Below, piece after piece: positions 1-11,761 of a stretch of 11,761 nucleotides of DNA. Where the stretch lies: IMG/VR virus record IMGVR_UViG_2585427768_000001, positions 1 through 11,761 of that record; one strand, given 5' to 3'. Position numbers and translations under genes: made by a program. This DNA comes from a virus. Taxonomy: Duplodnaviria; Heunggongvirae; Uroviricota; Caudoviricetes. The notes below the pieces were generated by a model that made no database searches, was not told the DNA's origin, and saw nothing but the letters and a program-made list of their open reading frames with translations. The first letter of the stretch is position 1. Each line of letters starts with the position of its first letter.

Positions 1-2283
1 GCAGGGGATCCCCTGCCGTTCGTATGAACGGCGCAAAATCGTGTTGTCGAAGTTGGCTCCATTTCCCCAGACCTGAACAAAAAATTCACCGGAGTTTTCG
101 TCGATAAATTCCCGCAATTGTAACAGTGCATCATCTAACGGGATTTCATCGGTCATAATGGCAGATTGCGCTTCGCGTGATTGCTTAAGCCACCATTTAA
201 TGGTGTCCCGATCAATGACTCCGCCAGCAGTTTCCAGATCGATAGTCTTACTAAATTCCGGTCCCATATCTCCGGTTTGCGGATCGAAAAATATTGCACC
301 TATTGAGATGATCGGGGCATCAGGATTTTTTCCCATGGTTTCAAGGTCTATCATTAGATGGTCACACGTCCTGCTGGTGGATGTGATTACGTGATGACTG
401 TTCACCTTAATTGAGTGATTTGCCGTCTCGCCAGTTTCATTATCGCTATCGTGATGCTGATTGCCGCCAGTGTTCTCCTTGTGTGGATGTTCAGCGCCTT
501 CCATTTCCTCCGGATCATCTTCCTGAACTTCAACCTGATACTCTTCATCGAATGTTTCCTGGTATGTTGCGTCGCCCATCACCGCGCCACAATCAGGGCA
601 ATTGCCGCCGCCGGTCTGACCGCAGGCGGTGCAGACTTTTTCCACTTCCTGTTGCGCCACTGGTTCAGGCTGTTTCGTTTCTGGCTCGTTTTGTAACGCA
701 TTTGGGCTGTTTTGTTCCGCTTTTTGGTAGTTCCGTTCCGATTCATGCTGGTTCTGGTTTACAGAATCGCGGGTCTGGATCCCCTTAACCCATTTCGGAT
801 CATTCGGGTCGCTAATCCCTGCAACAAATTCTCCGCGAGAGGCAGCAAGCAACTTATCGGCGTCAGGCTGGCTGATATTGGCTGCCTGCATAATTTTGTT
901 TACTTCGTCAGCGGTAACTTTTACCGGCCCTGGTTGTGCGGTCGTGTCAGATGCACCAGTATTTTGTTGTGAACCTGAGTATGTACCGTTTTTGTGGGCG
1001 AAATATTCTTCTTTCGTGATTTCAGTAGCCCCGGCAGCCAGTGCCTTATCCAGACCAGAAAGTTTGTTTGCGCGACCGTATTTTTCGCCATCCTTGTCGG
1101 TGAAGAGGAAGTAGAACGGCCCCTCACGCTCTACAGATGGTTCGACTTCCACTTTGCATTCGGTTTTTTCGTTGTCCGGAATTGCCGTTTCCACTGCATC
1201 AGTTTCTGGTACTGGCGACGAGAGAGTATCAGTTGCGCTCTGATTTCTTCCTTCATCTTCAAACACGCCCTTTGTAGTCAGGTATTCAGTAATGTATTTG
1301 TTCAGTGCCACAGGGTCTTTGTGAATGTCGATCGGACGTTCACGGACAAGGCCAAAAATAGTCTGGCGGTCGTAGCGAAGGGCATCAGGCTGTTTGCGCA
1401 TTGATGCCGAGATACGCTTCCAGTCTTCGCGGTCGTTGTCGATAACTTCATTTTTTGCCCAGCGATGGATGCTGCCGTCAATGTTTCCGGCATCCACATC
1501 ACCAGGCCAGAGAGCGTAGGCCAGTTCGTCATCCAGTGTTTTCCATGTCTGCTTGTATTCGCGATGAATGGCAGCAATGACCAGGCTGATTTTTCCTGTT
1601 GAATTTTCAGTGTGCTGTTGATTGACTCTGGCGCGGGCGAGATCAACAACAGACGTGTATTTTCCGGTTTCCTTGCGTTCACCTTCGCGACGTTTTTTCC
1701 AGATGCGCATCTCTGCCTGAATTTCGGGCCATTTGGCACCAGGCTTACATTTATGCTTAACCCACCCGATGGCATGCAGCTTAAGCTCCGGATACATGGC
1801 GTTAACATCTGGCATTTTCATCAACGCTTCAACGATATGTCCGTCGAATGTTGCCATGTCTTCCTGCAACAATTCCTGTGCGCTAATAACCATATCAACG
1901 GTGATGTTTTCACATGTGTCGAACTTAACCATGACAGCGTTCTGTACTTCAGGGGCCAGCTTGTCAAAAGTGACGTTCATCGGATCGGATTCAGTCTCAA
2001 CCGGGACAAAGGAAGCAGACTCCTCATCCCAGCGGTTTTCCTGCATATATTCAGCATCCCAGGAATCGAGGGCAGGGCGGGGTATACCGGGTTTATCCTC
2101 GCAGACAAGAAATTTATAAGCGCAGTCCTGAGCAGCCGGATAATGTTCCAGGAATTGCCAGTGAAATTTTGCGCGGGCGCGACGTTCATCACCGGCTTCA
2201 ATGGCAGTGGCTACAGCGACGGCACCTTCTTCCTTTATTGCCTGTTCGTCCGGAATGGCGGCGCAAATAAAGACTTTACTCAT
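1..2283 (-). CDS. recE: RecE-like exodeoxyribonuclease VIII family protein, N-terminal 761 codons; C-terminus lies beyond the window start
   Basis: Minus-strand frame is open from the ATG at 2283..2281 (SD GAGG 9 nt upstream on the minus strand) to position 1; I scanned every plus-strand triplet in this frame and found no tta/cta/tca. Absent from the ORF track because no stop lies in the window. Translation begins MSKVFICAAIPDEQ and contains KLLAASRGEFVAGISDPNDPKWVKGIQTRD (recalled as RecE-like), a CxxC-N7-CxxC zinc-ribbon-like motif, an acidic linker, and DEDD-type exonuclease motifs (HLMIDLETMG; NGANFDNTIL). Sits upstream of racC/kilR-position genes as in Rac. Confidence 0.7.
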   Translation of the reverse strand, partial: MSKVFICAAIPDEQAIKEEGAVAVATAIEAGDERRARAKFHWQFLEHYPAAQDCAYKFLVCEDKPGIPRPALDSWDAEYMQENRWDEESASFVPVETESDPMNVTFDKLAPEVQNAVMVKFDTCENITVDMVISAQELLQEDMATFDGHIVEALMKMPDVNAMYPELKLHAIGWVKHKCKPGAKWPEIQAEMRIWKKRREGERKETGKYTSVVDLARARVNQQHTENSTGKISLVIAAIHREYKQTWKTLDDELAYALWPGDVDAGNIDGSIHRWAKNEVIDNDREDWKRISASMRKQPDALRYDRQTIFGLVRERPIDIHKDPVALNKYITEYLTTKGVFEDEGRNQSATDTLSSPVPETDAVETAIPDNEKTECKVEVEPSVEREGPFYFLFTDKDGEKYGRANKLSGLDKALAAGATEITKEEYFAHKNGTYSGSQQNTGASDTTAQPGPVKVTADEVNKIMQAANISQPDADKLLAASRGEFVAGISDPNDPKWVKGIQTRDSVNQNQHESERNYQKAEQNSPNALQNEPETKQPEPVAQQEVEKVCTACGQTGGGNCPDCGAVMGDATYQETFDEEYQVEVQEDDPEEMEGAEHPHKENTGGNQHHDSDNETGETANHSIKVNSHHVITSTSRTCDHLMIDLETMGKNPDAPIISIGAIFFDPQTGDMGPEFSKTIDLETAGGVIDRDTIKWWLKQSREAQSAIMTDEIPLDDALLQLREFIDENSGEFFVQVWGNGANFDNTILRRSYERQGIPC

Positions 2284-2375
2284 TTTGTTTTACCTCATTA
2301 CAGATTTAAGGGTGAACAAATCCCTGCCATTGCTGGCATATAAGAATGAAACCGGATATTTATTACGGAACTGTT

Positions 2376-2567
2376 TTAAAGACCTGCCGGGATTTCGTTA
2401 TTATCCTGGTGAATAACTTTATCGACCGGGTAACAGTTACCGGGAATTTTCTGTTCGGTTGCTGCAGTCACACACTCCTGCATTGTCCTGTGAACACTGA
2501 CTGCAATATCAACTGGCTCTCCGGAAACAAGAAAAACTGTCAGAACAAGTGCAAATGCTGTATTCAT
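2376..2567 (-). CDS. Hypothetical small protein (63 aa) with hydrophobic N-terminal segment; racC/ydaE-position gene
   Basis: ATG at 2567..2565 overlaps the TGA of the upstream gene (ATGA coupling), with AGGA 8 nt upstream. Product MNTAFALVLTVFLVSGEPVDIAVSVHRTMQECVTAATEQKIPGNCYPVDKVIHQDNNEIPAGL. The track's longer 2376..2621 ORF has a poorly spaced SD. Confidence 0.5.
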   Translation of the reverse strand: MNTAFALVLTVFLVSGEPVDIAVSVHRTMQECVTAATEQKIPGNCYPVDKVIHQDNNEIPAGL

Positions 2568-2752
2568 TGCCAGCATCCTTTTTGTATCGGACGTAAACGG
2601 GCCAGCATTGAAAGAATGCATATTTTATTTAATAGCTCCCGTTCGTGTTTTCTCTTGTTAATGGCATCTTCAGTAAATACAGGGTTACTGATATTGACAC
2701 CAATTTCAAAACAACCTTCAGACGTATTAACGTTTGGTAATAACGTTTCCAT
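2564..2752 (-). CDS. Hypothetical small protein (62 aa); kilR-position gene of the leftward early operon
   Basis: ATG at 2752..2750 preceded by GAGGA with 7-8 nt spacing on the minus strand; product METLLPNVNTSEGCFEIGVNISNPVFTEDAINKRKHERELLNKICILSMLARLRPIQKGCWQ; stop overlaps the start of the next gene. Confidence 0.5.
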   Translation of the reverse strand: METLLPNVNTSEGCFEIGVNISNPVFTEDAINKRKHERELLNKICILSMLARLRPIQKGCWQ

Positions 2753-3004
2753 TATCGCGTCCTCAACAATGAATTTTGTGATGCGGTGCCTGGTGCCTCC
2801 AGGTGACGTTAACCAGTTAACAATTAACGCCGGATACAGAGAATCCACCCATAACACTGTTTTTGGTTTTAACTGTTCCGCGTGCGCTCAGCCGCATTCA
2901 CCACATCACAAAATTCACTTTAAAAAGGGCGGCAGAGCAGTCACGGAGTAAAACTGATACCGCCAAACGTCACCAGAAAATTGATAACAGAGGGCGTTGC
3001 AGCG

Positions 3005-3041
3005 GGGTTGTCACTTAAGCGTATGGTCAACCTGACAACCC
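3005..3041. repeat. Perfect inverted repeat, 9-bp arms (GGGTTGTCA / TGACAACCC) with 19-bp spacer, in a 560-bp non-coding gap
   Basis: Read directly from the sequence; no flanking T-run on either strand, so not an intrinsic terminator. Candidate protein-binding site or RNA stem-loop. Confidence 0.5.
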
Positions 3042-3314
3042 GGTGTCCTCAACGGGGGAAGAAATACCCCCGCCATACTTACCGCCGCGCCATTTCGCGG
3101 ATTGCCACAACCGGAAGCGCACGGTCGACGAAAATTTAACGACAGGCTATCTATGAACCAGCTACCTCGCCGTGCGCTTTCGCGTTATGGTCTGACTTTT
3201 CAGGGAAATATCCTTTCAGTAAACTGTCAGTGCCGGATGCTCACCCGTGTCCGGCGCACGCACTCCACCTCACCCGTGGAGAACTCCTTAATCACCAACC
3301 CTCAGGAGGGTGAA

Positions 3315-3590
3315 ATGTCGACTGAAAATGATGAAATCATTAACTCCCTGATACGCCAGATTAATAATTTTGATAAAGCATTGCAACATGCTGCGGCGCG
3401 TAGTGATATAACTCTTTTAGCAATTTCATTTCTTGCATCTGTTATGGATAAAAATGAAGTCGTACGACAGAGTCTTGTTGATTATATCGACTCGCTTCAA
3501 CCCGGCACTTTCAATCATGAGAGCTTCAATCATGAGAAAGAGCATGTTAAGTCTGTAATTAATTCTCTTATTTTGAATCAAAAGAATTAA
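3315..3590 (+). CDS. Hypothetical protein (91 aa), AT-rich gene in sieB position
   Basis: ATG 3315 preceded by AGGAGG 5 nt upstream; in frame with track ORF 3102..3590, whose upstream extension is GC-rich, Arg-rich and has no SD. Product MSTENDEIINSLIRQINNFDKALQHAAARSDITLLAISFLASVMDKNEVVRQSLVDYIDSLQPGTFNHESFNHEKEHVKSVINSLILNQKN. Contains a 15-bp in-frame tandem duplication (3510..3539). Confidence 0.6.
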   Translation: MSTENDEIINSLIRQINNFDKALQHAAARSDITLLAISFLASVMDKNEVVRQSLVDYIDSLQPGTFNHESFNHEKEHVKSVINSLILNQKN

Positions 3591-3900
3591 TGCTTTTTGT
3601 TGCAAAGTAATTTTCAAGGGGTTCTATTCGAATCCCTTTCTTTTTCATTAACAAGCCAAACCCCTTATCAATGATGTCCATTAGATCCAGGAAGTATTTT
3701 TCATGTAAATCCTGGTTATAAGAGAGCTGCTTCTCTTCGTACAGCCCGATAAAGGCTCGGCGTACGTTACCGGATATATTGTCGATGGTTTCTTTTTCTA
3801 CGGTACTCAGGTCAAGAGTCGCCAGTTGAGAGCGAACCACATTCGATGCCATTTCCTGGAATGGGACTGGTAAATCTTTAAATTCCATCGTCAACCTCAT
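3568..3900 (-). CDS. Hypothetical protein (110 aa); second gene of the leftward pL-like early operon
   Basis: Track ORF; ATG 3900..3898 overlaps the TGA of the upstream 77-aa gene (ATGA coupling); alternative start MEFKDLP 12 nt downstream. The 3' end overlaps the convergent 91-aa gene by 23 bp. Confidence 0.55.
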   Translation of the reverse strand: MRLTMEFKDLPVPFQEMASNVVRSQLATLDLSTVEKETIDNISGNVRRAFIGLYEEKQLSYNQDLHEKYFLDLMDIIDKGFGLLMKKKGIRIEPLENYFATKSINSFDSK

Positions 3901-4133
3901 CAGTCAGTGTTTCTGGTTAACCAGCGACGTGCGCCAGCTTCAGTTTTAAACGTTTTGCTTCTGGTATATGTCATCGCGGTAAACGTGCCGTCCTGGTTGG
4001 GAAACACGCCGCATACCAGAGATTCGTTGTTGCCAAGCTCGATAGTATCCATGCTGACCTCATTTCCCCTTAACGCCGGGGTAGCGGAACAAAAACCTGC
4101 TGCATAGTTATTAAAGTTGAACCCTGCCGTCAT
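3900..4133 (-). CDS. Hypothetical protein (77 aa); first gene downstream of the leftward pL-like promoter (ydaG/ydaF position)
   Basis: Track ORF; ATG 4133..4131 with GAGG 9 nt upstream on the minus strand; product MTAGFNFNNYAAGFCSATPALRGNEVSMDTIELGNNESLVCGVFPNQDGTFTAMTYTRSKTFKTEAGARRWLTRNTD. Confidence 0.5.
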   Translation of the reverse strand: MTAGFNFNNYAAGFCSATPALRGNEVSMDTIELGNNESLVCGVFPNQDGTFTAMTYTRSKTFKTEAGARRWLTRNTD

Positions 4134-4232
4134 GTTCTTACGCCTCGGGCTGGCTACTTAACCCCTGACCACTGCCTGGTAACTCGAGGTATTGCCCTGT
4201 ATTGTGTGGGACGGGATGGGTTGGTATGGGAA

Positions 4233-4276
4233 AACTATAGGAAATGCCTAATTACTTGTCAATAGGCTATGCCTAA
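4233..4276 (-). promoter_or_regulatory. Leftward pL-like sigma70 promoter with operator palindrome (OL-like)
   Basis: On the minus strand: -35 TTGACA (4262..4257), 17-nt spacer, -10 TATAGT (4239..4234). Palindrome TAGGCTATGCCTA at 4263..4275 and GCCTA half-site at 4246..4250. Segment 4255..4276 is the exact reverse complement of 4899..4920 on the other side of racR. Confidence 0.6.
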
Positions 4277-4370
4277 TAATTTGGGCGCAACCTAATAGGT
4301 GATGGTTTGTGGGAGAGGTAGTAGGAGTTAACTAACGGGAACTAGGAATTTCCCGTCGGACCATATAAGT

Positions 4371-4847
4371 TTAAGTTCCTGTCTTGGTGATGTTCTGGCT
4401 TTTCCGTTTTGATTCTTGATTTTTCAGATAGTTAGCTACCTTCATTTCCATTGCGGCAATGTAGGCGCGAACGTCATGATCAACCCAACTAGGCTCCGTA
4501 GCATTTCCAGATAAGATGAAAGCCACAATTGCTCTTTTTTCATCAGAGGCGGCTTGATAAAGGCTGTTTATGTCTAAAAGTTCACTTTTTGTATCTGAAG
4601 TGGATGGGGTTGGTATGGGGTATTCGTTAAGCCCCCAATGCTCTGGACCAACCACATCAGAAAAGAAACGCCATAGTTCTGGAAGTTTGTCTTTACTTAT
4701 CGAACCTTTCTTAATCCAGTCATGGATTGATGGTGGTTGGACTTTGAAATGACGTGCGATTTCCGCCTTTGATTTGACGGCTCCTGATGCAATTTTTTTG
4801 TTAATGGCCTGCTCTATCGCTCGGCCTAAGTCTTTACCACTAAGCAT
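4371..4847 (-). CDS. racR: Prophage repressor, RacR-like (158 aa, HTH)
   Basis: Track ORF MLSGKDLGRAIEQAINKK...; HTH-like segment KSKAEIARHFKVQPPSIHDWIKKG; divergent from the ydaS/ydaT-like genes, flanked by operator repeats. Size and organisation match Rac racR from memory, not verified by search. Confidence 0.7.
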   Translation of the reverse strand: MLSGKDLGRAIEQAINKKIASGAVKSKAEIARHFKVQPPSIHDWIKKGSISKDKLPELWRFFSDVVGPEHWGLNEYPIPTPSTSDTKSELLDINSLYQAASDEKRAIVAFILSGNATEPSWVDHDVRAYIAAMEMKVANYLKNQESKRKSQNITKTGT

Positions 4848-4898
4848 TGCTTAATAGTCTCCTATGCGCATCGCGTTAGGCAATCCCTACTCTCGATG

Positions 4899-4944
4899 TA
4901 TTAGGCATAGCCTATTGACAATTTCATTAGGCTAAGCCTAATAT
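4899..4944 (+). promoter_or_regulatory. Rightward pR-like sigma70 promoter with two operator palindromes (OR-like)
   Basis: -35 TTGACA 4915..4920, 18-nt spacer, -10 TAATAT 4939..4944. Palindromes TAGGCATAGCCTA (4902..4914) and TAGGCTAAGCCTA (4928..4940), centres 26 bp apart, overlapping the -35 and spacer. Confidence 0.6.
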
Positions 4945-4971
4945 TGTTGCGTGTTTTTTGGAGTTCATTCG

Positions 4972-5295
4972 ATGAAAAAAGATAACTATTCATTCAAACG
5001 AGCTTGTGCTGTTGTCGGTGGGCAATCAGCAATGGCTAGGCTTTTAGGTGTATCTCCTCCAAGCGTAAATCAATGGATCAAAGGTGTACGTCAGTTACCT
5101 GCTGAGAGATGTCCTGCGATTGAACGAGCAACAAAAGGTGGTGTCCTGTGTGAAGAACTTCGTCCTGATGTTGATTGGACATACTTACGACGCTCGTCAT
5201 GTTATTCGCAGAATATGTCGATGAAGCAACCAAATGACGAAAACGATCATACCCGAAGCATCAAGAGGCAAATGATTCATGAAAATCAAACATGA
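4972..5295 (+). CDS. ydaS: Cro/YdaS-like HTH protein (107 aa)
   Basis: ATG 4972 with GGAG 8 nt upstream; in frame with track ORF 4951..5295. Product MKKDNYSFKRACAVVGGQSAMARLLGVSPPSVNQWIKGVRQLPAERCPAIERATKGG... has the YdaS/Cro-like HTH pattern; first gene from the pR-like promoter. Confidence 0.7.
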   Translation: MKKDNYSFKRACAVVGGQSAMARLLGVSPPSVNQWIKGVRQLPAERCPAIERATKGGVLCEELRPDVDWTYLRRSSCYSQNMSMKQPNDENDHTRSIKRQMIHENQT

Positions 5296-5704
5296 GCACA
5301 TCCGCATGGCGATGAATGCCTGGGCATACCCTGATGGTGAGAAAGTTCCTGCAGCTGAAATAGCCCGGACTTATTTCGAACTGGGGATGACGTTCCCTGA
5401 ACTGTACGACGACAGCCATCCGGAAGCCCTGGCCCGTAATACCCAGAAAATTTTCCGTTGGCTGGATAAAGACACCCCTGATGCTGTTGAAAAAATGCAG
5501 GCTCTGTTACCGGCGATCGAAAAGGCGATGCCGCCTTTGCTGGTGGCCCGTATGCGCAGCCACAGTTCTGAATATTACCGTGAGATCGTCGAACGGAGGG
5601 ATCGGCTGGGGAAGGATGTCGATGATTTTGTTGCGTCAGCGGTTGTTTTGTATGACCAGATGAATCGCGGCGGCCCGGCAGGGAATGCTGTGGTGATGCA
5701 CTAA
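5279..5704 (+). CDS. ydaT: YdaT-like protein (141 aa)
   Basis: Track ORF MKIKHEHIRMAMNAWAYPDGEKVPAAEIARTYFELGMTFPELYDD...; overlaps the 3' end of the ydaS-like gene by 17 nt; position and size match Rac ydaT. Confidence 0.65.
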   Translation: MKIKHEHIRMAMNAWAYPDGEKVPAAEIARTYFELGMTFPELYDDSHPEALARNTQKIFRWLDKDTPDAVEKMQALLPAIEKAMPPLLVARMRSHSSEYYREIVERRDRLGKDVDDFVASAVVLYDQMNRGGPAGNAVVMH

Positions 5705-5726
5705 AAGCACGGTGTTCGGGGGTTTT

Positions 5727-6689
5727 ATGAGCAGCAAGCTTCATGGTCTTGTCTGGGAAGGGTGCGCCTTCACCGGCATGATCTTATCCAGGGTGGCGGT
5801 TATGGCCCGTCTTGCAGACTACAGCAATGACGAGGGCGTGTCATGGCCTGCCATTGAAACTATCCGGCGTCAGATCGGTGCAAGAAGTGAATCCACAGTG
5901 AAATCGGCTATTGCAGAACTGGCGAAAGAGGGCTGGCTGACGAAGGAAGAGCGTAAGGTCGGTGGGCGTAATGTAAGCAATATCTATCGGCTTAATGTGG
6001 AAAAACTCGAAGCAGCTGCGGCGGCGGCGCGTGAGTCATATAAACCGAAAAGAAAAATTAGCCCGGCAAAAAATGACCCGTTAACAGTTGACCCGTCAAA
6101 TATTGACCCCTCAACGGTTGACCCGTCAAATTTTGATGGATCAACTGTTGATAAAAAACTGCCGATTAGGGGGGCGATGATTAACCCCGATCCGTCAGTA
6201 TTAAAACCTGATCCGTCAGATAAAAGATCTTCTTGTCCGGACGCTTCGCAACCGGACCCGCAGACGGCTGAACAGGATTTTTTAACCCGACACCCTGACG
6301 CGGTTGTGTTCAGTGCGAAAAAACGCCAGTGGGGAAGTCAGGAAGATTTGGTGTGCGCACAGTGGATCTGGGGACGAATCGTGAGTCTTTACGAGCAGGC
6401 GGCCAGCGATGATGGCGAGATCACTAGACCGAAAGAACCCAACTGGACAGCATGGGCCAATGACGTTCGCACAATGCGGATGCTGGATGGCAGAACTCAC
6501 AGACAAATTTGTGAAATGTTTGGGCGTCTCCAGCGGGATTCGTTCTGGGTAAAAAACATCATGAGTCCGGCAAAACTCCGGGAAAAATGGGATGAACTGG
6601 TTATCCGCCTGGGGCGTTCGCCTGCGCAGCGTTGCGTGAATCACATTTCTGAACCGGACACTGAAATTCCGCCGGGCTTCAGGGGGTAA
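5727..6689 (+). CDS. Phage replication initiator, O-like (N-terminal winged-helix DNA-binding domain), about 320 aa
   Basis: ATG 5727 with GGGGG 4 nt upstream (track uses GTG 5712). N-terminus MSSKLHGLVWEGCAFTGMILSRVAVMARLADYSNDEGVSWPAIETIRRQIGARSESTVKSAIAELAKEGWL resembles phage replication-initiator HTH domains. A DPS-repeat linker coincides with DNA-level iterons, as in lambda O. Confidence 0.65.
   Translation: MSSKLHGLVWEGCAFTGMILSRVAVMARLADYSNDEGVSWPAIETIRRQIGARSESTVKSAIAELAKEGWLTKEERKVGGRNVSNIYRLNVEKLEAAAAAARESYKPKRKISPAKNDPLTVDPSNIDPSTVDPSNFDGSTVDKKLPIRGAMINPDPSVLKPDPSDKRSSCPDASQPDPQTAEQDFLTRHPDAVVFSAKKRQWGSQEDLVCAQWIWGRIVSLYEQAASDDGEITRPKEPNWTAWANDVRTMRMLDGRTHRQICEMFGRLQRDSFWVKNIMSPAKLREKWDELVIRLGRSPAQRCVNHISEPDTEIPPGFRG
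6073..6148. repeat. Five tandem 15-bp-spaced iterons (core TTGAC-N2-GTCAA), putative prophage ori
   Basis: ATGACCCGTTAA (6073), TTGACCCGTCAA (6088), TTGACCCCTCAA (6103), TTGACCCGTCAA (6118), TTGATGGATCAA (6133), then an A-rich tract ATAAAAAA (6149..6158) and two more GATCCGTCAG copies (6189, 6211). Confidence 0.6.
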
Positions 6690-6729
6690 GTGTTAATTTC
6701 TGGTCATGAGGTAATTTTCAGGAGGGCTT

Positions 6730-7152
6730 GTGGCAAAAGTTTTTACACAAGAAGAGCGGGAAAAAATTAAAGGGCAGGTTGTTGAACTCGTACGCCAGAG
6801 TGGGCGCGAGACGTTACGACAACTGGAAACTAAAACTGGGGCAACAAGATATCTGATGAGCGTTCTGGCCAGAGAGCTGGTTGCCAGTGGCGATGTATAC
6901 AACTCTGGTTACGGGTTATTCCCGTCTGAACAGGCGCGTAAGGACTGGCAAAATGCCCGTAAAAAGCTCTCAAGGGCAAAGCTGAAGAAACCATCTGCGG
7001 TTGATCCGGACCTTATCTGGTCATTACCTGACGGAGAAATACGTCGCTACGACAGGCGTCAGAACATAATCTGTCGCGAGTGCCGGAAGAGCGAAGTTAT
7101 GCAGCGCATATTGTCGTTTTATCAGGGTAATTTTCAGAAGGTGCTGTTGTGA
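6730..7152 (+). CDS. Hypothetical protein (140 aa) downstream of the O-like initiator; no Walker A motif
   Basis: GTG 6730 preceded by AGGAGGG 3 nt upstream; product MAKVFTQEEREKIKGQVVELVRQSGRETLRQLETKTGATRYLMSVLARELVASGDVYNSGYG..., with CxxC near the C-terminus (CRECRK). Confidence 0.6.
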   Translation: MAKVFTQEEREKIKGQVVELVRQSGRETLRQLETKTGATRYLMSVLARELVASGDVYNSGYGLFPSEQARKDWQNARKKLSRAKLKKPSAVDPDLIWSLPDGEIRRYDRRQNIICRECRKSEVMQRILSFYQGNFQKVLL

Positions 7153-7257
7153 GCCAAATTAACAATCGGAACTTCGTGAAGAGAAAGCATAATCCAAATC
7201 TGAATAATTAAGTTCAGCACTGTAAATAAAATTTAATCCTTAACTGGAGGTATATCT

Positions 7258-7470
7258 ATGTCAAATACACAGAAAATTATTAACACTGAAAAATATAACG
7301 AGTGGGTGAAAAAATTCTCTGAACAGATTTTTAAAATTACTGGCGACGAGAATGTGGCAAAAAATGAATTAGAACCGTGGACACCTGAAGGAAACGCACC
7401 AAATTATTGCTGGTGGGAAGTTGATCCGGTTGATGCTGCAAATGAAGCCATGAGTTACCACAACGATTAA
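7258..7470 (+). CDS. Hypothetical small protein (70 aa), AT-rich accessory gene
   Basis: ATG 7258 with GGAGG 7 nt upstream; product MSNTQKIINTEKYNEWVKKFSEQIFKITGDENVAKNELEPWTPEGNAPNYCWWEVDPVDAANEAMSYHND. Confidence 0.6.
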   Translation: MSNTQKIINTEKYNEWVKKFSEQIFKITGDENVAKNELEPWTPEGNAPNYCWWEVDPVDAANEAMSYHND

Positions 7471-7479
7471 TGTCGGGAG

Positions 7480-7497
7480 GCCGCCCGAAAGGGCGGT
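7480..7497 (+). other. Stem-loop with GAAA tetraloop (CCGCCC-GAAA-GGGCGG) between an SD-like GGGAGG and the next start codon
   Basis: Read from sequence at 7481..7496; GGGAGG at 7475..7480; next ATG at 7503; no T-run after the stem. Confidence 0.5.
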
Positions 7498-7502
7498 AAG
7501 AA

Positions 7503-7721
7503 ATGACTACATTATTCAGAAAAGAATATCCGCAAAAAAGTAGAGCGACAGAATTTTTGTTTCTCATTCTGTTTATCGTATTGATGATACCGATATCCCC
7601 TCTAATTTTTGTCTGGGCAATCGGGAAAATAATTGAGCCAGTTACTGAATTGTATACCGACGTTGTATGGGCGTCGTTCAACACACTGCACAATAAAATT
7701 AATCCGTATAAGGAAAACTGA
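7503..7721 (+). CDS. Hypothetical single-pass membrane protein (72 aa)
   Basis: Track ORF; hydrophobic stretch FLFLILFIVLMIPISPLIFVWAIG; stop TGA 7719..7721 lies 1 nt before the next ATG. Confidence 0.55.
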   Translation: MTTLFRKEYPQKSRATEFLFLILFIVLMIPISPLIFVWAIGKIIEPVTELYTDVVWASFNTLHNKINPYKEN

Positions 7722-7722
7722 T

Positions 7723-7986
7723 ATGGCAACTTTGACAAAAAAAGAACGGGCATGGTTGAACGAATTACAGGAAGTTCTTGATCGCTGTCCATCACCGAAA
7801 AAAATTGGCTTTTACACCATTGGCGATAAAAGCATTTACCTGTATGACCTACGCCGCATGGATGAAATCATGGAGGCTCTTGATAATCGTTCGTCGATGG
7901 ATTGGTGTGTTGCTGTTCATGATATGAATGCAGGGTTTGATGAAAAGATTTTGTTCCCCTCATCAGTTGAAAGCACTGCGGGTTAA
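7723..7986 (+). CDS. Hypothetical protein (87 aa)
   Basis: ATG 7723 with AGGA 8 nt upstream; in frame with track ORF 7633..7986; product MATLTKKERAWLNELQEVLDRCPSPKKIGFYTIGDKSIYLYDLRRMDEIMEALDNRSSMDWCVAVHDMNAGFDEKILFPSSVESTAG. Confidence 0.6.
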   Translation: MATLTKKERAWLNELQEVLDRCPSPKKIGFYTIGDKSIYLYDLRRMDEIMEALDNRSSMDWCVAVHDMNAGFDEKILFPSSVESTAG

Positions 7987-7996
7987 GGAGTAACAC

Positions 7997-8164
7997 ATGA
8001 CCACTATTACCAAAGAACGTATTGAATTGTTCATTAAAAACCCGCTTGAAAACGGGCTTACCCGTGGTGAACAAATGGAACTGGCACGGATTGCGCTGGC
8101 ATCGCTGGAAGCAGAGCCGGTTGTGTTCTGGTTTGAAAAATATCAAGAAGGGGCTACGGCATGA
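7997..8164 (+). CDS. Hypothetical small protein (55 aa), short paralogue of the downstream 114-aa protein
   Basis: Below the track's 60-aa limit; found by hand. ATG 7997 with AAGGAG 6 nt upstream; product [55 protein letters not shown]; stop TGA 8162..8164 overlaps the next ATG (ATGA). Confidence 0.5.
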
Positions 8165-8505
8165 CGACTTTTACCAGAGAGCAGTTAATAGCTCACGCAG
8201 AGGAGACTATTGAAGCACAGAGACTGTGCATACCGGGCACAATCGACCATGACATCATCCGCACATATAAGATGGATATTGCTGTTCTGGAAATCGCACT
8301 GGTATCGCTGGCAGCAGAGCCAGCCGGTAAATTGCATGAATACAAACCAGTGGGATATCAGCGTCTGGTCGATGAGTTAACCATGCTGGTAAAGCAGTTA
8401 ACCTGGCAACTGAGGAAAGCGAAGCCAGACTGCAAATTACCGGATAAGGCGATGAGTTATCTGGAGCGGAACGGACTGATAAGCGTGGAGGATATTTTAC
8501 GATGA
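8161..8505 (+). CDS. Hypothetical protein (114 aa), paralogue of the upstream 55-aa protein
   Basis: Track ORF; shares the N-terminal MTTxT(K/R)E and the motif I-A-L-x-S-L-x-A-E-P with the 55-aa protein; DNA-level similarity about 80% over about 25 nt (8093..8119 vs 8304..8330). Confidence 0.6.
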
Positions 8506-8585
8506 CCTGGCCTGAAGCATTAACAACGGTAGGAATTGCGATGGCGGTGGCGCTGGTGGTGTATTCGATTTGCCGCTGGGGATAA
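8502..8585 (+). CDS. Possible hydrophobic micropeptide (27 aa), translationally coupled to the 114-aa gene
   Basis: ATG 8502 overlaps the upstream TGA (ATGA); product [27 protein letters not shown]; no strong SD; too short to judge from sequence alone. Confidence 0.3.
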
Positions 8586-8796
8586 AAACGGTTTGCGGGA
8601 AAAGGAGAGTTAAGTAGAATTGCAGCGGGTGCTTGAGGCTATCTGTCTCAGGCATGAACACCAAAAGGCAGATAGAGAAAAGCCCCAGTTAACATTACGC
8701 GTCCGGCAAGACGCTTAACATTAATCTGAGGCCATATCTATGCTCTACACACGTAGGTTAGCCTCTTACGTGCCGAAAGGCAAGGAGAAGCAGGCT

Positions 8797-8952
8797 ATGA
8801 AGCAGCAAAAGGCGATGCTAATCGCCCTGATCGTCATCTGTTTAACCGTCATTGTGACGGCACTGGTAACGAGGAAAGACCTCTGCGAGGTACGAATCCG
8901 AACCGGCCAGACGGAGGTCGCTGTCTTCACAGCTTACGAACCTGAGGAGTAA
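8797..8952 (+). CDS. hok: Hok/Gef-family type I toxin (51 aa), HokD/RelF-like
   Basis: Product MKQQKAMLIALIVICLTVIVTALVTRKDLCEVRIRTGQTEVAVFTAYEPEE matches the Hok family signature; AAGGAG 9 nt upstream of ATG 8797. An in-frame upstream ATG at 8740 with its own GAGG SD gives the track's 70-aa form. Confidence 0.85.
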   Translation: MKQQKAMLIALIVICLTVIVTALVTRKDLCEVRIRTGQTEVAVFTAYEPEE

Positions 8953-9020
8953 GAGACCTGGCGGGGGAGAAATCCCTCGCCACCTCTGATGTGTCAGGCA
9001 TCCTCAACGCACCCGCACTT

Positions 9021-9049
9021 AACCCGCTTCGGCGGGTTTTGTTCTTTTT
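9021..9049 (+). terminator. Rho-independent terminator after hok
   Basis: AACCCGC-TTCG-GCGGG followed by TTTTGTTCTTTTT; GC stem, tetraloop and T-run read directly. Confidence 0.7.
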
Positions 9050-9196
9050 GTGAAAAAAATTCCCTTAAAGGAGATTTTTTTAACTAAAAAGGTTTACTTT
9101 GCTTTCGTATATGGTAAATTTTAGGAATTAGAATTTAAGCGCCCATCAGGCTTGCGTTAGGCAAGTCTGCTAAATCAACAAATTGAGGATAAAATC

Positions 9197-9556
9197 ATGG
9201 CACTCACTGAATTCGGTAAGGCCGTTAGAAAAGCGAGGATCGATACTGACAGTACTCTTCTGACTATGTCTCAAGAACTGGGCACTACGCCAGCGTTTCT
9301 TAGCGGTTTAGAAACTGGTAGCAAAAAAATACCTCTGAAGTGGGTTAAGAAGATTGATTCTTACTTCAAGGCCAAAGGTGTAGAAATTGAAGGGTTACAG
9401 GAGCTAGCGGCAGTTGCGAATGACTCAGTTCCAGTAAACGGTTTGTCTCAGCAACAGAAAATGCTTGTAGCGGGATTCGCTAAGTCGCAGTTTACGCCGG
9501 AACAGCTAAAGAGTTTTGCAGATTTATTGCAAAAGATTAATAACAATGAGGGGTAA
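9197..9556 (+). CDS. XRE-family helix-turn-helix transcriptional regulator (119 aa)
   Basis: ATG 9197 with GAGG 8 nt upstream; N-terminal HTH_3-like segment LTEFGKAVRKARIDTDSTLLTMSQELGTTPAFLSGLETG followed by an extension of about 60 aa. Confidence 0.75.
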   Translation: MALTEFGKAVRKARIDTDSTLLTMSQELGTTPAFLSGLETGSKKIPLKWVKKIDSYFKAKGVEIEGLQELAAVANDSVPVNGLSQQQKMLVAGFAKSQFTPEQLKSFADLLQKINNNEG

Positions 9557-9558
9557 TT

Positions 9559-10035
9559 ATGTATCAAATGAGAGGTAACAGGGTGTCACCGATGCAAGAA
9601 GAAGAAATAGCCTACAGAGCTATAAACTTCTGTAATGCTATTGGTCTTACAGCCTCAAAGCGCAAAAGAAAGCGTTATGATATGTTCTTTGAAAGCCTGT
9701 CAATTTATGGGGTTACTCTTGACGTCAGGACCGACAAAGAGTGGGAGGCTCTGACGTATGATCTAACTATCGGACATTGTGACCCCGCTTCTCTAACAAT
9801 TACGGTTCCCAATAAAATATATGTGAATGCTTGCCTTGGGGAAGAGCATGCACTTGCTGTTATCTTCCACGAGCTAGGTCATTTGCTTCTTGGACACAAA
9901 GCAGTTTTACACTTTTCAGTTAAAGAACCTACTCGTATTGAGGATGCAGAATGGCAGGCAGATACATTTGCGGATATCGTACTGGAAACAATTGGCGTGA
10001 GAACACAACAGATGTCGTTCGATTTTTATATGTAA
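9559..10035 (+). CDS. ImmA/IrrE-family zinc metallopeptidase (158 aa; HExxH)
   Basis: ATG 9559 is 2 nt after the HTH gene stop, with GAGGGG 5 nt upstream; HExxH motif in HELGHLLLGH plus a downstream E/D-rich segment, typical of the ImmA/IrrE family. Confidence 0.75.
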   Translation: MYQMRGNRVSPMQEEEIAYRAINFCNAIGLTASKRKRKRYDMFFESLSIYGVTLDVRTDKEWEALTYDLTIGHCDPASLTITVPNKIYVNACLGEEHALAVIFHELGHLLLGHKAVLHFSVKEPTRIEDAEWQADTFADIVLETIGVRTQQMSFDFYM

Positions 10036-10036
10036 A

Positions 10037-10060
10037 AGCCCTGCGCTAACAGGGCTTTTA
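10037..10060 (+). terminator. Probable intrinsic terminator after the peptidase gene
   Basis: AGCCCTG-CGCTAA-CAGGGCT followed by TTTTA; the T-run is short. Confidence 0.5.
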
Positions 10061-10164
10061 GGGACGGAAAGTGCGCTAACACATTCCGTAGTGTATGGAG
10101 ATAATCCAATCACAACACTTTTTGTAGACAAGCGAAGTGTAGTGGTTCTCCCAACAAAGTGCAA

Positions 10165-10182
10165 CCTGTGTGGATTCACAGG
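10165..10182. promoter_or_regulatory. Inverted repeat CCTGTG-N6-CACAGG upstream of the Cys-rich ORF; candidate operator
   Basis: Perfect 6-bp arms read directly; lies 21 nt upstream of ATG 10203. Confidence 0.35.
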
Positions 10183-10202
10183 TGAGCAGGGAAAACGAAA
10201 TC

Positions 10203-10352
10203 ATGGCAATGGGTACCTGTCGCAAATGTGGCTGTCCATGTGAGATCATTTTTCGCTACTCTGTGTGTGTAGATGGTGTAATGCGCCACGCGAAAAAAGG
10301 GAAGCCTTTCCCGATCCCACTTTGCAGTTGTAGTGGCAAGCACGCAGCTTGA
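10203..10352 (+). CDS. Cys-rich mini-protein (49 aa; 7 Cys), putative metal-binding
   Basis: ATG 10203 with AGGGAA 9-10 nt upstream; product MAMGTCRKCGCPCEIIFRYSVCVDGVMRHAKKGKPFPIPLCSCSGKHAA; the track's 60-aa form starts at GTG 10170 inside the inverted repeat. Confidence 0.45.
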   Translation: MAMGTCRKCGCPCEIIFRYSVCVDGVMRHAKKGKPFPIPLCSCSGKHAA

Positions 10353-10366
10353 TATTCAGTACTGAC

Positions 10367-10398
10367 AAAACCCGCTTCGGCGGGGTTTGTTTTTTTTT
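10367..10398 (+). terminator. Rho-independent terminator after the Cys-rich ORF; core identical to the hok terminator
   Basis: AAAACCCGC-TTCG-GCGGGGTTT followed by GTTTTTTTTT; the 16-nt AACCCGCTTCGGCGGG is identical to 9021..9036. Confidence 0.7.
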
Positions 10399-10467
10399 GG
10401 CATTCAGGTTTACAATTCGCACGTCAGCCTGAACAACTGGCACCTGCTGCGCCAGCAGAGAAAGACG

Positions 10468-10746
10468 ATGGCGCACAATACCAAATCACACAATTCTGAT
10501 AATTCAGCTGTCTTTGCCAGCAGGCACGGGCGGCGTTCCCGCACATTCAAATCTGATTGGTACCAGCATCCCCCATGTACTGAAGAACAAGCTGAATGGC
10601 TAATTCAGTGCTACCGCAGACACGGATACGAGATTAAGAAAGCCCTCAGCCTCGATTATCGTCACTGGATAATCTCCGTCAGGCTTCCTTACTCTGAACG
10701 CCCACCGCGTCCGTCCCGCACATTCCAGCAACGCATCTGGAGGTAA
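10468..10746 (+). CDS. Hypothetical protein (92 aa), rem-position gene
   Basis: In frame with track ORF 10387..10746 (which starts in the terminator T-run); ATG 10468 with a weak GAGAAAG SD; product MAHNTKSHNSDNSAVFASRHGRRSRTFKSDWYQHPPCTEEQAEWLIQCYRRHGYEIKK... Confidence 0.45.
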   Translation: MAHNTKSHNSDNSAVFASRHGRRSRTFKSDWYQHPPCTEEQAEWLIQCYRRHGYEIKKALSLDYRHWIISVRLPYSERPPRPSRTFQQRIWR

Positions 10747-10747
10747 C

Positions 10748-11291
10748 GTGCGGGTATTACTTCGACCTGTTCTGGTACCGGAACTCGGGCTGGTGATCGT
10801 TAAGCCGGGCCGTGAATCCATGCCGGTATTCCACAATACCCGGGTACTGGTGGAGCCGGAACCGAAAAGCATGCGTAATCTGTCGTCCGGGGTCGTTCCT
10901 GCCGTTCGCCAGCCGCTGGCGGAGGATAAATCATTACTGCCATTTTTCAGCGACGAACGAGTGATTCGTGCTGCTGGTGGCGCTGGCGCATTGTCTGACT
11001 GGTTACTGCGCCATGTTAAATCCTGCCAGTGGCCACACGGCGATTATCACCACAGTGAAACCGTCATTCACCGTTATGGTACCGGCGCAATGGTGTTGTG
11101 CTGGCACTGCGACAACCAGCTGCGCGACCAGACCTCCGAATCACTCGGGCAACTTGCTCACCAAAACCTGTCTGCATGGATGATTGACGTCATACGCCAT
11201 GCAATGAATGGCTCGCAGGAACGGGAATTATCGCTGGCTGAATTATCCTGGTGGGCGGTCCGCAATCAGGTGGCGGACGCGCTACCGGAAG
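10748..11291 (+). pseudogene. DUF968-like (YdfU-like) Cys/His-rich protein gene, 3' part removed by IS insertion
   Basis: GTG 10748 with GGAGG 4 nt upstream, overlapping the upstream stop; Cys/His motif CQWPHGDYHH...CWHCDNQ; the frame runs into the IS terminal repeat at 11292, so the track ORF tail after ...ADALPEV is IS-derived. Confidence 0.55.

Positions 11292-11761
<470 letters not shown>

Follow-up and report, generated by a model that had tools for sequence, protein, structure and literature searches.

The O-like initiator gene and its internal repeats

The window examined here is a stretch of 11,761 nucleotides from a tailed virus of the Caudoviricetes (positions 1 to 11,761 of IMG/VR record IMGVR_UViG_2585427768_000001), which is 99.9% identical to a segment of the Escherichia coli E7476 chromosome that constitutes a Rac-like prophage. 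The subject of this study is an array of short palindromic repeats located inside a gene for an O-like replication initiator of 320 amino acids (plus strand, ATG at 5727, stop at 6689), which holds an N-terminal domain, the repeats, a distal block, a C-terminal domain and a tail. A preliminary description of the sequence had proposed that the array is the replication origin of the prophage.

Direct reading of the sequence gives five units of 12 bp, ATGACCCGTTAA (6073-6084), TTGACCCGTCAA (6088-6099), TTGACCCCTCAA (6103-6114), TTGACCCGTCAA (6118-6129) and TTGATGGATCAA (6133-6144), with a start-to-start distance of exactly 15 bp. The last four are exact TTGA-N4-TCAA palindromes separated by 3-bp spacers and make up the core iteron array (6088-6144), and the unit at 6073, with two mismatches to the core, is a degenerate copy; the near-palindromes of the TTGAC-N2-GTCAA type described earlier are thus found at the stated interval as four exact copies of TTGA-N4-TCAA and one degenerate copy. 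The fifth unit, which encodes Asp-Gly-Ser, has a G-rich center and represents the opposite orientation. The exact motif TTGANNNNTCAA occurs four times in the window, each time in the array, as compared to an expectation of 0.41 copies, and none of 200 dinucleotide-preserving shuffles of the window reached four matches. No other array of this motif was identified in the window. Tandem Repeats Finder recovered the region 6062-6136 with a period of 15 (5 copies) and, more strongly, with a period of 30 (score 101), and a separate repeat search gave the same 15-bp register. As a whole, the array is an inverted repeat with 33-nt arms. The consensus of FNR sites is TTGAT-N4-ATCAA, and a reading of TTGAT...ATCAA as an FNR site was ruled out, since the spacer is 2 bp shorter here.

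The array fades at both ends. At its left edge (6058-6084) are two decayed units, TTAGCCCGGCAA (6058) and the above-mentioned ATGACCCGTTAA (6073), which keep the 15-bp register with two to three mismatches, and at its right edge is a half unit followed by an A-run, TTGATAAAAAAC (6148-6159), which is the locally least stable duplex beside the array. Two further degenerate units, TTAGGGGGGCGA (6166) and TTAACCCCGATC (6181), are again located 15 bp apart (6166-6192) and are the codon-for-codon counterparts of TTAAGGGGTCAA and TTGACCCCGATC in homologs from Erwinia, Edwardsiella and Mixta. The encoded peptide, NDPLT VDPSN IDPST VDPSN FDGST VDKKL ... PDPSVLKPDPSDK, corresponds to the DP(S/L)xx pentapeptide-repeat linker noted previously. 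Within the window, the edges of the units encode different residues (V/I/F and N/T), but the bases needed there to complete the palindrome (xTT and Axx) are always the same.

The RefSeq annotation of the same coding sequence is "helix-turn-helix domain-containing protein", and its assignment as an O-like initiator was borne out by a match over the whole length to PHROG 391 (phrog_391), "replication initiation O-like", at 3.7e-115. A Pfam HTH_36 domain covers residues 25-71. In an AlphaFold2 model built on the alignment of homologs, the N-terminal domain (residues 1-104, encoded at 5727-6038) consists of helices and a beta-hairpin wing (E71-78, E81-89) with a predicted local distance difference test score (pLDDT) of 73-87, and a helical C-terminal domain spans residues 180-295 (pLDDT 70-89), followed by a disordered tail. 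Residues 105-179, between the winged-helix and the helical domain, are disordered in the model (pLDDT 31-45); the repeats can be tolerated in a coding region because they encode this disordered linker, the amino acid sequence of which is nearly free. Foldseek matches to the N-terminal domain were dimeric winged helix-turn-helix regulators (ArsR/SmtB, MarR and PadR families), and for some of these the structure with operator DNA has been solved. The matches indicate a generic winged helix only. We presume that this domain is the iteron-binding module.

The C-terminal domain (encoded at 6267-6614) is homologous to that of lambda O. A tblastn search against phages aligned residues 182-300 with the C-terminal part of O from lambda, 933W and many Shiga toxin (Stx) phages at 38.7% identity (E-value 1e-18), and with phi80 gp15 at 36.3% identity. 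A profile of 64 homologs was aligned by hhalign to lambda O residues 170-294 with a probability of 99.7% and an E-value of 1.5e-25, and no homology of the N-terminal domain to lambda O was detected with the same profile. A sequence search of the PDB identified no solved relative of either initiator domain, the only match being to the tail of DnaT, and NCBIfam gave no match for the initiator, the DUF977 protein or the YdaT-like protein. On the strength of these alignments, the initiator is a true lambda O homolog in its C-terminal domain, combined with a different winged-helix N-terminal domain.

We compared the position of the array to that of lambda ori. In lambda, the iterons cover O codons ~116-145, the A/T tract codons ~145-158, and the shared domain starts at residue 170, while in the window the array covers codons 116-140, the block with GATCCGTCAG and GATC codons ~154-168, and the shared domain starts at residue 181, which is an equivalent position. 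Thus, in lambda and Stx phages (933W/P27) as well as here, the origin, in our case a candidate, is situated in the linker-coding middle of an initiator gene with a homologous C-terminal domain. Both have several closely placed sites with internal dyad symmetry, the window at least four of them, and in both the N-terminal domain and the iterons are exchanged as one module. Lambda has 4 iterons and Stx phages have 6 (PMC7466680); among the relatives of the window the number varies as well, from 2 to 5 or more units. The lambda arrangement asserted in the preliminary description therefore holds for the codon interval relative to the shared C-terminal domain; it does not hold for the size and spacing of the sites and the P gene, and the A/T element is weak. 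Lambda has a 40-bp A/T tract where the window has a short A-run and a conserved GATC-containing block, and a P gene with a P-associated O tail where the window has a DnaT-like tail and no P.

Constraint on the DNA and co-variation with the N-terminal domain

An alignment-based genome scan yielded 79 loci from different species of the Enterobacterales, of which 62 full genes, representing about 60 species, were used for comparison. Pentapeptide repeats were present in the linker of all 62 homologs. There are two large subgroups: that of the window, with the N-terminus MSSKLHGLVWEG, and a larger one with the N-terminus MS(T/V)KL..YVWD and units of the form TCTGAC-NNN-TCAAAA, encoding SD(P/A/T)SK. 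For the codon counts, units were defined solely by the protein pattern S[DE]xS[KEN]. The first serine of the unit is encoded by TCT in 151 of 180 cases (84%), as compared to 8% of the serine codons elsewhere in the same genes, and the second (Ser4) by TCA in 149 of 180 (83%, as compared to 15% elsewhere). Likewise, AAA accounts for 143 of 144 unit lysines (62% elsewhere) and GAC for 79% of the unit aspartates (45% elsewhere). In the subgroup of the window, isoleucine is always ATT (16/16) and valine always GTT (15/15), with proline mostly CCC and glycine mostly GGG. As a control, the commonest codon at conserved N-terminal domain residues of the same genes reached frequencies of only 0.50 (six-fold degenerate), 0.44 (four-fold) and 0.64 (two-fold), and synonymous sites are therefore randomized across species except in the repeats. 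Conservation at the DNA level in excess of that of the protein had been suggested as a check, and across these 62 genes the constraint is clearly on the DNA, which is the opposite of the outcome named as refuting an origin.

The orientation of the units provides a further line of evidence. In Edwardsiella, Erwinia, Mixta and Morganella, two kinds of unit alternate, namely TTGACCCC(C/T)CAA, which encodes Asp-Pro-Pro/Ser, and TTGAGGGGT(C/T)AA, which encodes Glu-Gly-Ser/Leu. The latter is the reverse complement of the former, so that the peptides are unrelated and the duplex site is identical. Similarly, in some relatives TTGACCCCTCAA (Asp-Pro-Ser) is found in alternation with TTGAGGGGTCAA (Glu-Gly-Ser), which is its reverse complement. 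Such flips are predicted by a site that is read on double-stranded DNA and not by an explanation at the level of the protein only.

The repeats also change together with the N-terminal domain. The homolog with the most divergent N-terminal domain of the set (L098) has four units of the form GTGA-N4-TCAC, and another (L100) has CTGAACGTTCAG; in both of them the two arms have changed symmetrically. A mosaic junction is located at 6222, right after the second GATCCGTCAG, where many matches to phages and E. coli start, and in E. coli prophages and phages the segment on its left (N-terminal domain and repeats) recombines independently of that on its right (C-terminal domain and DUF977). In phage mEp460, the C-terminal domain, the tail and the downstream LygF/DUF977 gene are ~88% identical to the window at the nucleotide level, and the N-terminal domain is unrelated. 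The same linker of the mEp460 initiator (L162, 3355-3503) contains five direct repeats, CATCrGGTCAAAATG, spaced at 23-24 bp, and after them a tandem set of three A-rich 12-mers, TACAGAGAATAmAA. As in the window, mEp460 and related E. coli prophages have neither P nor DnaC, but their layout is closer to the classical combination of iterons and a DNA-unwinding element, and from its sequence mEp460 seems to combine the same C-terminal chassis with an origin of a second and more classical type. Finally, a YdaT-like gene (83% identical) and DUF977 also flank an unrelated initiator gene without any TTGA-N4-TCAA site, and the array therefore follows the N-terminal domain and not the neighboring genes. 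These comparisons indicate that the repeat type tracks the N-terminal domain rather than the C-terminal domain or the neighbors, as expected for an initiator and its cognate iterons, and that the repeats are under selection at the DNA level and matched to that domain.

Mosaicism was observed at a finer scale as well. The N-terminal domain with the repeats, the C-terminal domain, the tail and DUF977 recombine separately (junctions at 6222 and 6693 in the window; L164, 677-1747), and one E. coli prophage combines an unrelated N-terminal domain and a third type of C-terminal domain with the same DnaT-like tail.

Flanking elements, helicase loading and prophage setting

The A-rich tract that had been noted after the array is present, and it is weak as an A/T element: it consists of six A and is moderately unstable, the 30-bp segment from 6130 having 73% A+T, which corresponds to the 97th percentile of the window. 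More conspicuous is a distal block at 6187-6229, which consists of CCGATCCGTCAG (6187) and the palindrome CTGA-TCCG-TCAG (6208), each followed by A/T-rich bases. The sequence CYGATCCGTCAG is found in two copies, at 6187 and 6208, and so is GATCCGTCAG (6189-6198 and 6210-6219, 21 bp apart), in agreement with the two further copies reported to follow the array. The palindrome at 6208 is in phase with the array, at a distance of 5 x 15 bp from 6133, and GATC sites are located at 6189, 6210 and 6226. The pattern GGGGATCCGTCAGTAA ... GATCC(A/G)TCAGATAAAA, which surrounds two DPS motifs, is nearly invariant in nucleotides in most of the 62 homologs, the departures being L092, L121 and L137. Aspartate is encoded here by GAT, which creates the GATC sites, and valine by GTA, as compared to GAC for aspartate in the array. 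The 30-bp segments at 6196-6208 fall within the 88th-94th percentile of instability, and the block sits where lambda has its A/T tract. It is a candidate for an unwinding element, for an element that responds to methylation or for a group of additional sites for the initiator, and the segment 6148-6229 as a whole is likely to serve as an opening or control region.

Two GATC sites of the block are present in most homologs, and a link between methylation and the candidate origin is possible. At many homologous loci (L121, L122, L125, L132, L101, L148 and others), a gene for a Dam-type N6-adenine methyltransferase (PF05869) or an MT-A70 protein follows the initiator gene, often overlapping its stop codon. 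Sequences similar to DnaA boxes were observed on the minus strand at 5996-6004, ~70 bp upstream of the array (TTTTCCACA, an exact match to the relaxed consensus), and at 6146-6154, overlapping the half unit (TTATCAACA, one mismatch, not conserved in the homologs). They were rejected as DnaA boxes, with counts across the window near chance and no conservation of the sites in homologs.

The C-terminal tail of the initiator, AQRCVNHISEPDTEIPPGFRG (encoded at 6624-6686), resembles that of DnaT. In a phmmer search against the PDB, residues 300-320 (...SEPDTEIPPGFRG) matched the last ~21 residues of E. coli DnaT (2ru8, 6aep and 9zbt) with E-values of 0.01-0.03, and it is because of this tail that phage records carry the label "Primosomal protein I". 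Among the 62 loci, all eight initiators with lambda-O-like tails (...HWNSPEAWENTL, ...TDWIDG...) are followed by a homolog of lambda P (PF06992, confirmed for L083), as compared to none of the ~40 with an ...IPxGFRG tail like that in the window. The genes that follow the latter encode DUF977/PerC-like proteins, Dam-type or MT-A70 methylases, ParB-like proteins and KilA-N proteins. In the window, the place held by P in lambda is taken by a DUF977 gene (6730-7152, plus strand; Pfam DUF977 at 1.5e-31, PHROG 142), also referred to as LygF or "Ren-like", which does not belong to a helicase loader family. This distribution suggests that the DnaT-like tail replaces the phage helicase loader P. A DnaT_C motif has been noted earlier in the O-related protein DopC (PMC5509034), and a recent paper on the preprimosome structure assigns no partner to the extreme C-terminal residues of DnaT (PMC13377028).

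In the E7476 prophage, the gene order is integrase, excisionase, RecE-type exonuclease, dicB, racR, a YdaS-like Cro, a YdaT-like (CII-like) protein and the 320-residue initiator, after which come the DUF977 protein, small genes, IS1 and lysis genes. Downstream of its early region, this near-identical prophage contains an inserted IS1A and a DUF6645 gene that is truncated, both placed at ~9690-11200 in the window by the offset from locus L001 (10290-11772). The Rac prophage of E. coli K-12 is of the same type and shares the order racR, ydaS, ydaT and then the initiator, but its YdaU is a DUF1376 protein that is not homologous to the initiator in the window, and it is followed by the DnaC-like YdaV, a putative ATP-binding protein. 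Of the comparison with lambda and Rac that had been recommended, the lambda part yielded a matching position, whereas K-12 Rac is no direct comparator, since ydaU-ydaV is a distinct replication module, and oriJ therefore does not correspond to the candidate origin of the window. In the literature searched, Rac oriJ and ydaU were mentioned in passing only. In the middle of K-12 ydaU (L161, 2972-3063), we observed four copies of AAGCAGATGTTCAA with spacings of 33, 33 and 12 bp, and an 11-bp perfect inverted repeat; the AAGCAGATGTTCAA repeats are candidates for the oriJ iterons.

A candidate replication origin and the alternatives

Taken together, we consider it likely that the prophage carries a lambda-type replication origin within its own O-like initiator gene and that the array is the part of this origin to which the initiator binds. 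The proposal of a prophage origin is supported in silico by the position of the array, the constraint on its DNA and the co-variation of repeats and N-terminal domain. In such an origin, the 12-bp TTGA-N4-TCAA sites would be bound by the N-terminal winged-helix domain, probably in dimeric form, and the packing of these sites at 15 bp, with four exact copies and decayed ones on both sides, would give rise to an "O-some"-like nucleoprotein complex with adjacent sites on roughly opposite faces of the helix. The duplex would open in the adjoining, moderately A/T-rich and GATC-containing segment 6148-6229, and the host helicase would be recruited by the lambda-O-like C-terminal domain and the DnaT-like tail, with no phage P protein involved. 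A similar principle is known from theta plasmids of the RepA, pi and RepE type, in which a winged-helix initiator binds arrays of short repeats beside a melting region and the number of repeats varies and can tune replication. The iterons of these plasmids are direct repeats of ~17-22 bp at a distance of approximately two helical turns; they are located in non-coding DNA, as a rule together with DnaA boxes.

Several observations weigh against an origin. The sites in the window, 12 bp long and placed at 15 bp or ~1.4 helical turns, are smaller and denser than the lambda iterons, which measure 18-19 bp and are placed at ~20-25 bp, and they differ in size and spacing also from plasmid iterons, besides being palindromic, inside a gene and next to DnaA-box-like sequences that are not conserved. 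The lambda iteron is ATCCCTCAAAACGAGGGA, of 18-19 bp (PMC7466680, Table 1). The least stable 30-bp segments near the array reach 67-73% A+T (92nd-97th percentile of the window) and the lowest GC content of 60-bp segments is 0.38, so that a strong A/T-rich tract for unwinding is not evident. The initiator gene of the window is followed by DUF977 and not by a gene for P, DnaC or DnaB. The units of the larger subgroup are mostly asymmetric (CTGA...TCAA), and the notion of a dimer on a palindrome may consequently fail for the family as a whole. Natural E. coli variants with only two or three units exist. Part of the codon uniformity could stem from duplication within the array and gene conversion, although these processes do not account for the orientation flips or the invariance across genera. 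Because of the IS1 insertion and the truncated gene downstream, the prophage copy is probably defective, and its origin may be an unused relic in the host strain. Finally, in the literature searched, which covered few subscription journals, neither a binding or origin-firing experiment on this family nor a description of a TTGA-N4-TCAA origin was identified, and with that coverage the motif need not be novel.

The main residual alternative, which we regard as improbable, is that the repeats are real binding sites for the initiator or another factor and serve regulation rather than initiation, with the true origin located elsewhere; an autoregulatory roadblock, copy-number control or handcuffing, and the exclusion of related phages are possible roles. 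The constraint on the DNA shows that the sequence matters and not for which purpose, the A/T-rich element that an origin should have is weak here, and cloned lambda ori iterons are reported to inhibit related phages (PMC3349717). However, the array has the same position as lambda ori relative to the homologous C-terminal domain, mEp460 has a canonical layout of iterons and A-rich 12-mers at that place, and the motif forms no second array in the window. The two functions do not exclude each other, since lambdoid iterons serve as origin and control elements alike.

It is very improbable that the repeats are a feature of the protein only, that is, a flexible DPSxx linker derived from recent tandem duplication, with similarity and palindromy of the DNA as by-products. 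Repeats that are in frame, that encode a low-complexity linker predicted to be disordered and that change in copy number in steps of five amino acids among close relatives, as slippage would give, agree with this explanation, and a single palindromic founder would have spread its palindromy by duplication. Yet the amino acids vary where the nucleotides are fixed (V/I/F always as xTT, N/T always starting with A), the two serines of a unit have different fixed codons over ~60 species in genes with otherwise randomized synonymous sites, and Asp-Pro-Ser and Glu-Gly-Ser units are exact reverse complements. Together with the symmetric arm changes in L098 and L100, the codon analysis largely refutes it. 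We give hardly any weight to a third explanation, in which the selected trait is a nucleic acid structure, either a cruciform or hairpins in the DNA or a structured mRNA that, for example, slows translation between the domains. A stretch of 161 nt does fold better than its shuffled versions (z = -3.5 as single-stranded DNA and -4.9 as RNA, with 0 of 200 shuffles as good), and the inverted repeat with its 33-nt arms agrees with this explanation, but good folding is automatic for a row of palindromes. Moreover, the larger subgroup has asymmetric units, the centers and copy numbers of which vary freely, so that a long hairpin is not conserved there, and no Rfam family matches.

If the array is indeed the initiator-binding part of an origin, it would define the origin and the initiator-site code of a very common replication module: the exact module is carried by ~414 complete E. 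coli genomes, and homologs occur in ~60 species of the Enterobacterales and in phages that form plaques, among them PhiR49_1 and mEp460. More speculatively, and as a possibility that we hold only tentatively, there may be a widespread class of P-less lambdoid replicons in which abutted 15-bp palindromic sites, in either orientation, nucleate an initiator filament, the nucleotide-conserved GATC block serves to open or control the origin in a Dam/SeqA-sensitive manner, and the tail mimics the C-terminus of host DnaT and plugs the origin complex into the PriA/PriB/DnaT-DnaB-DnaC restart machinery, thereby replacing P. The locus is a natural case of a DNA element and a protein linker that share the same bases, with reverse-complement units that reveal selection on the DNA. 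The absence of P exactly where the initiator has a DnaT-like tail points to a route by which some lambdoid phages may recruit the host helicase, and the dichotomy of tail and P may help to clarify what the C-terminus of DnaT contacts. The module could, if our reading is true, supply new compatible replicons and allow better prediction of the replication competence of prophages.

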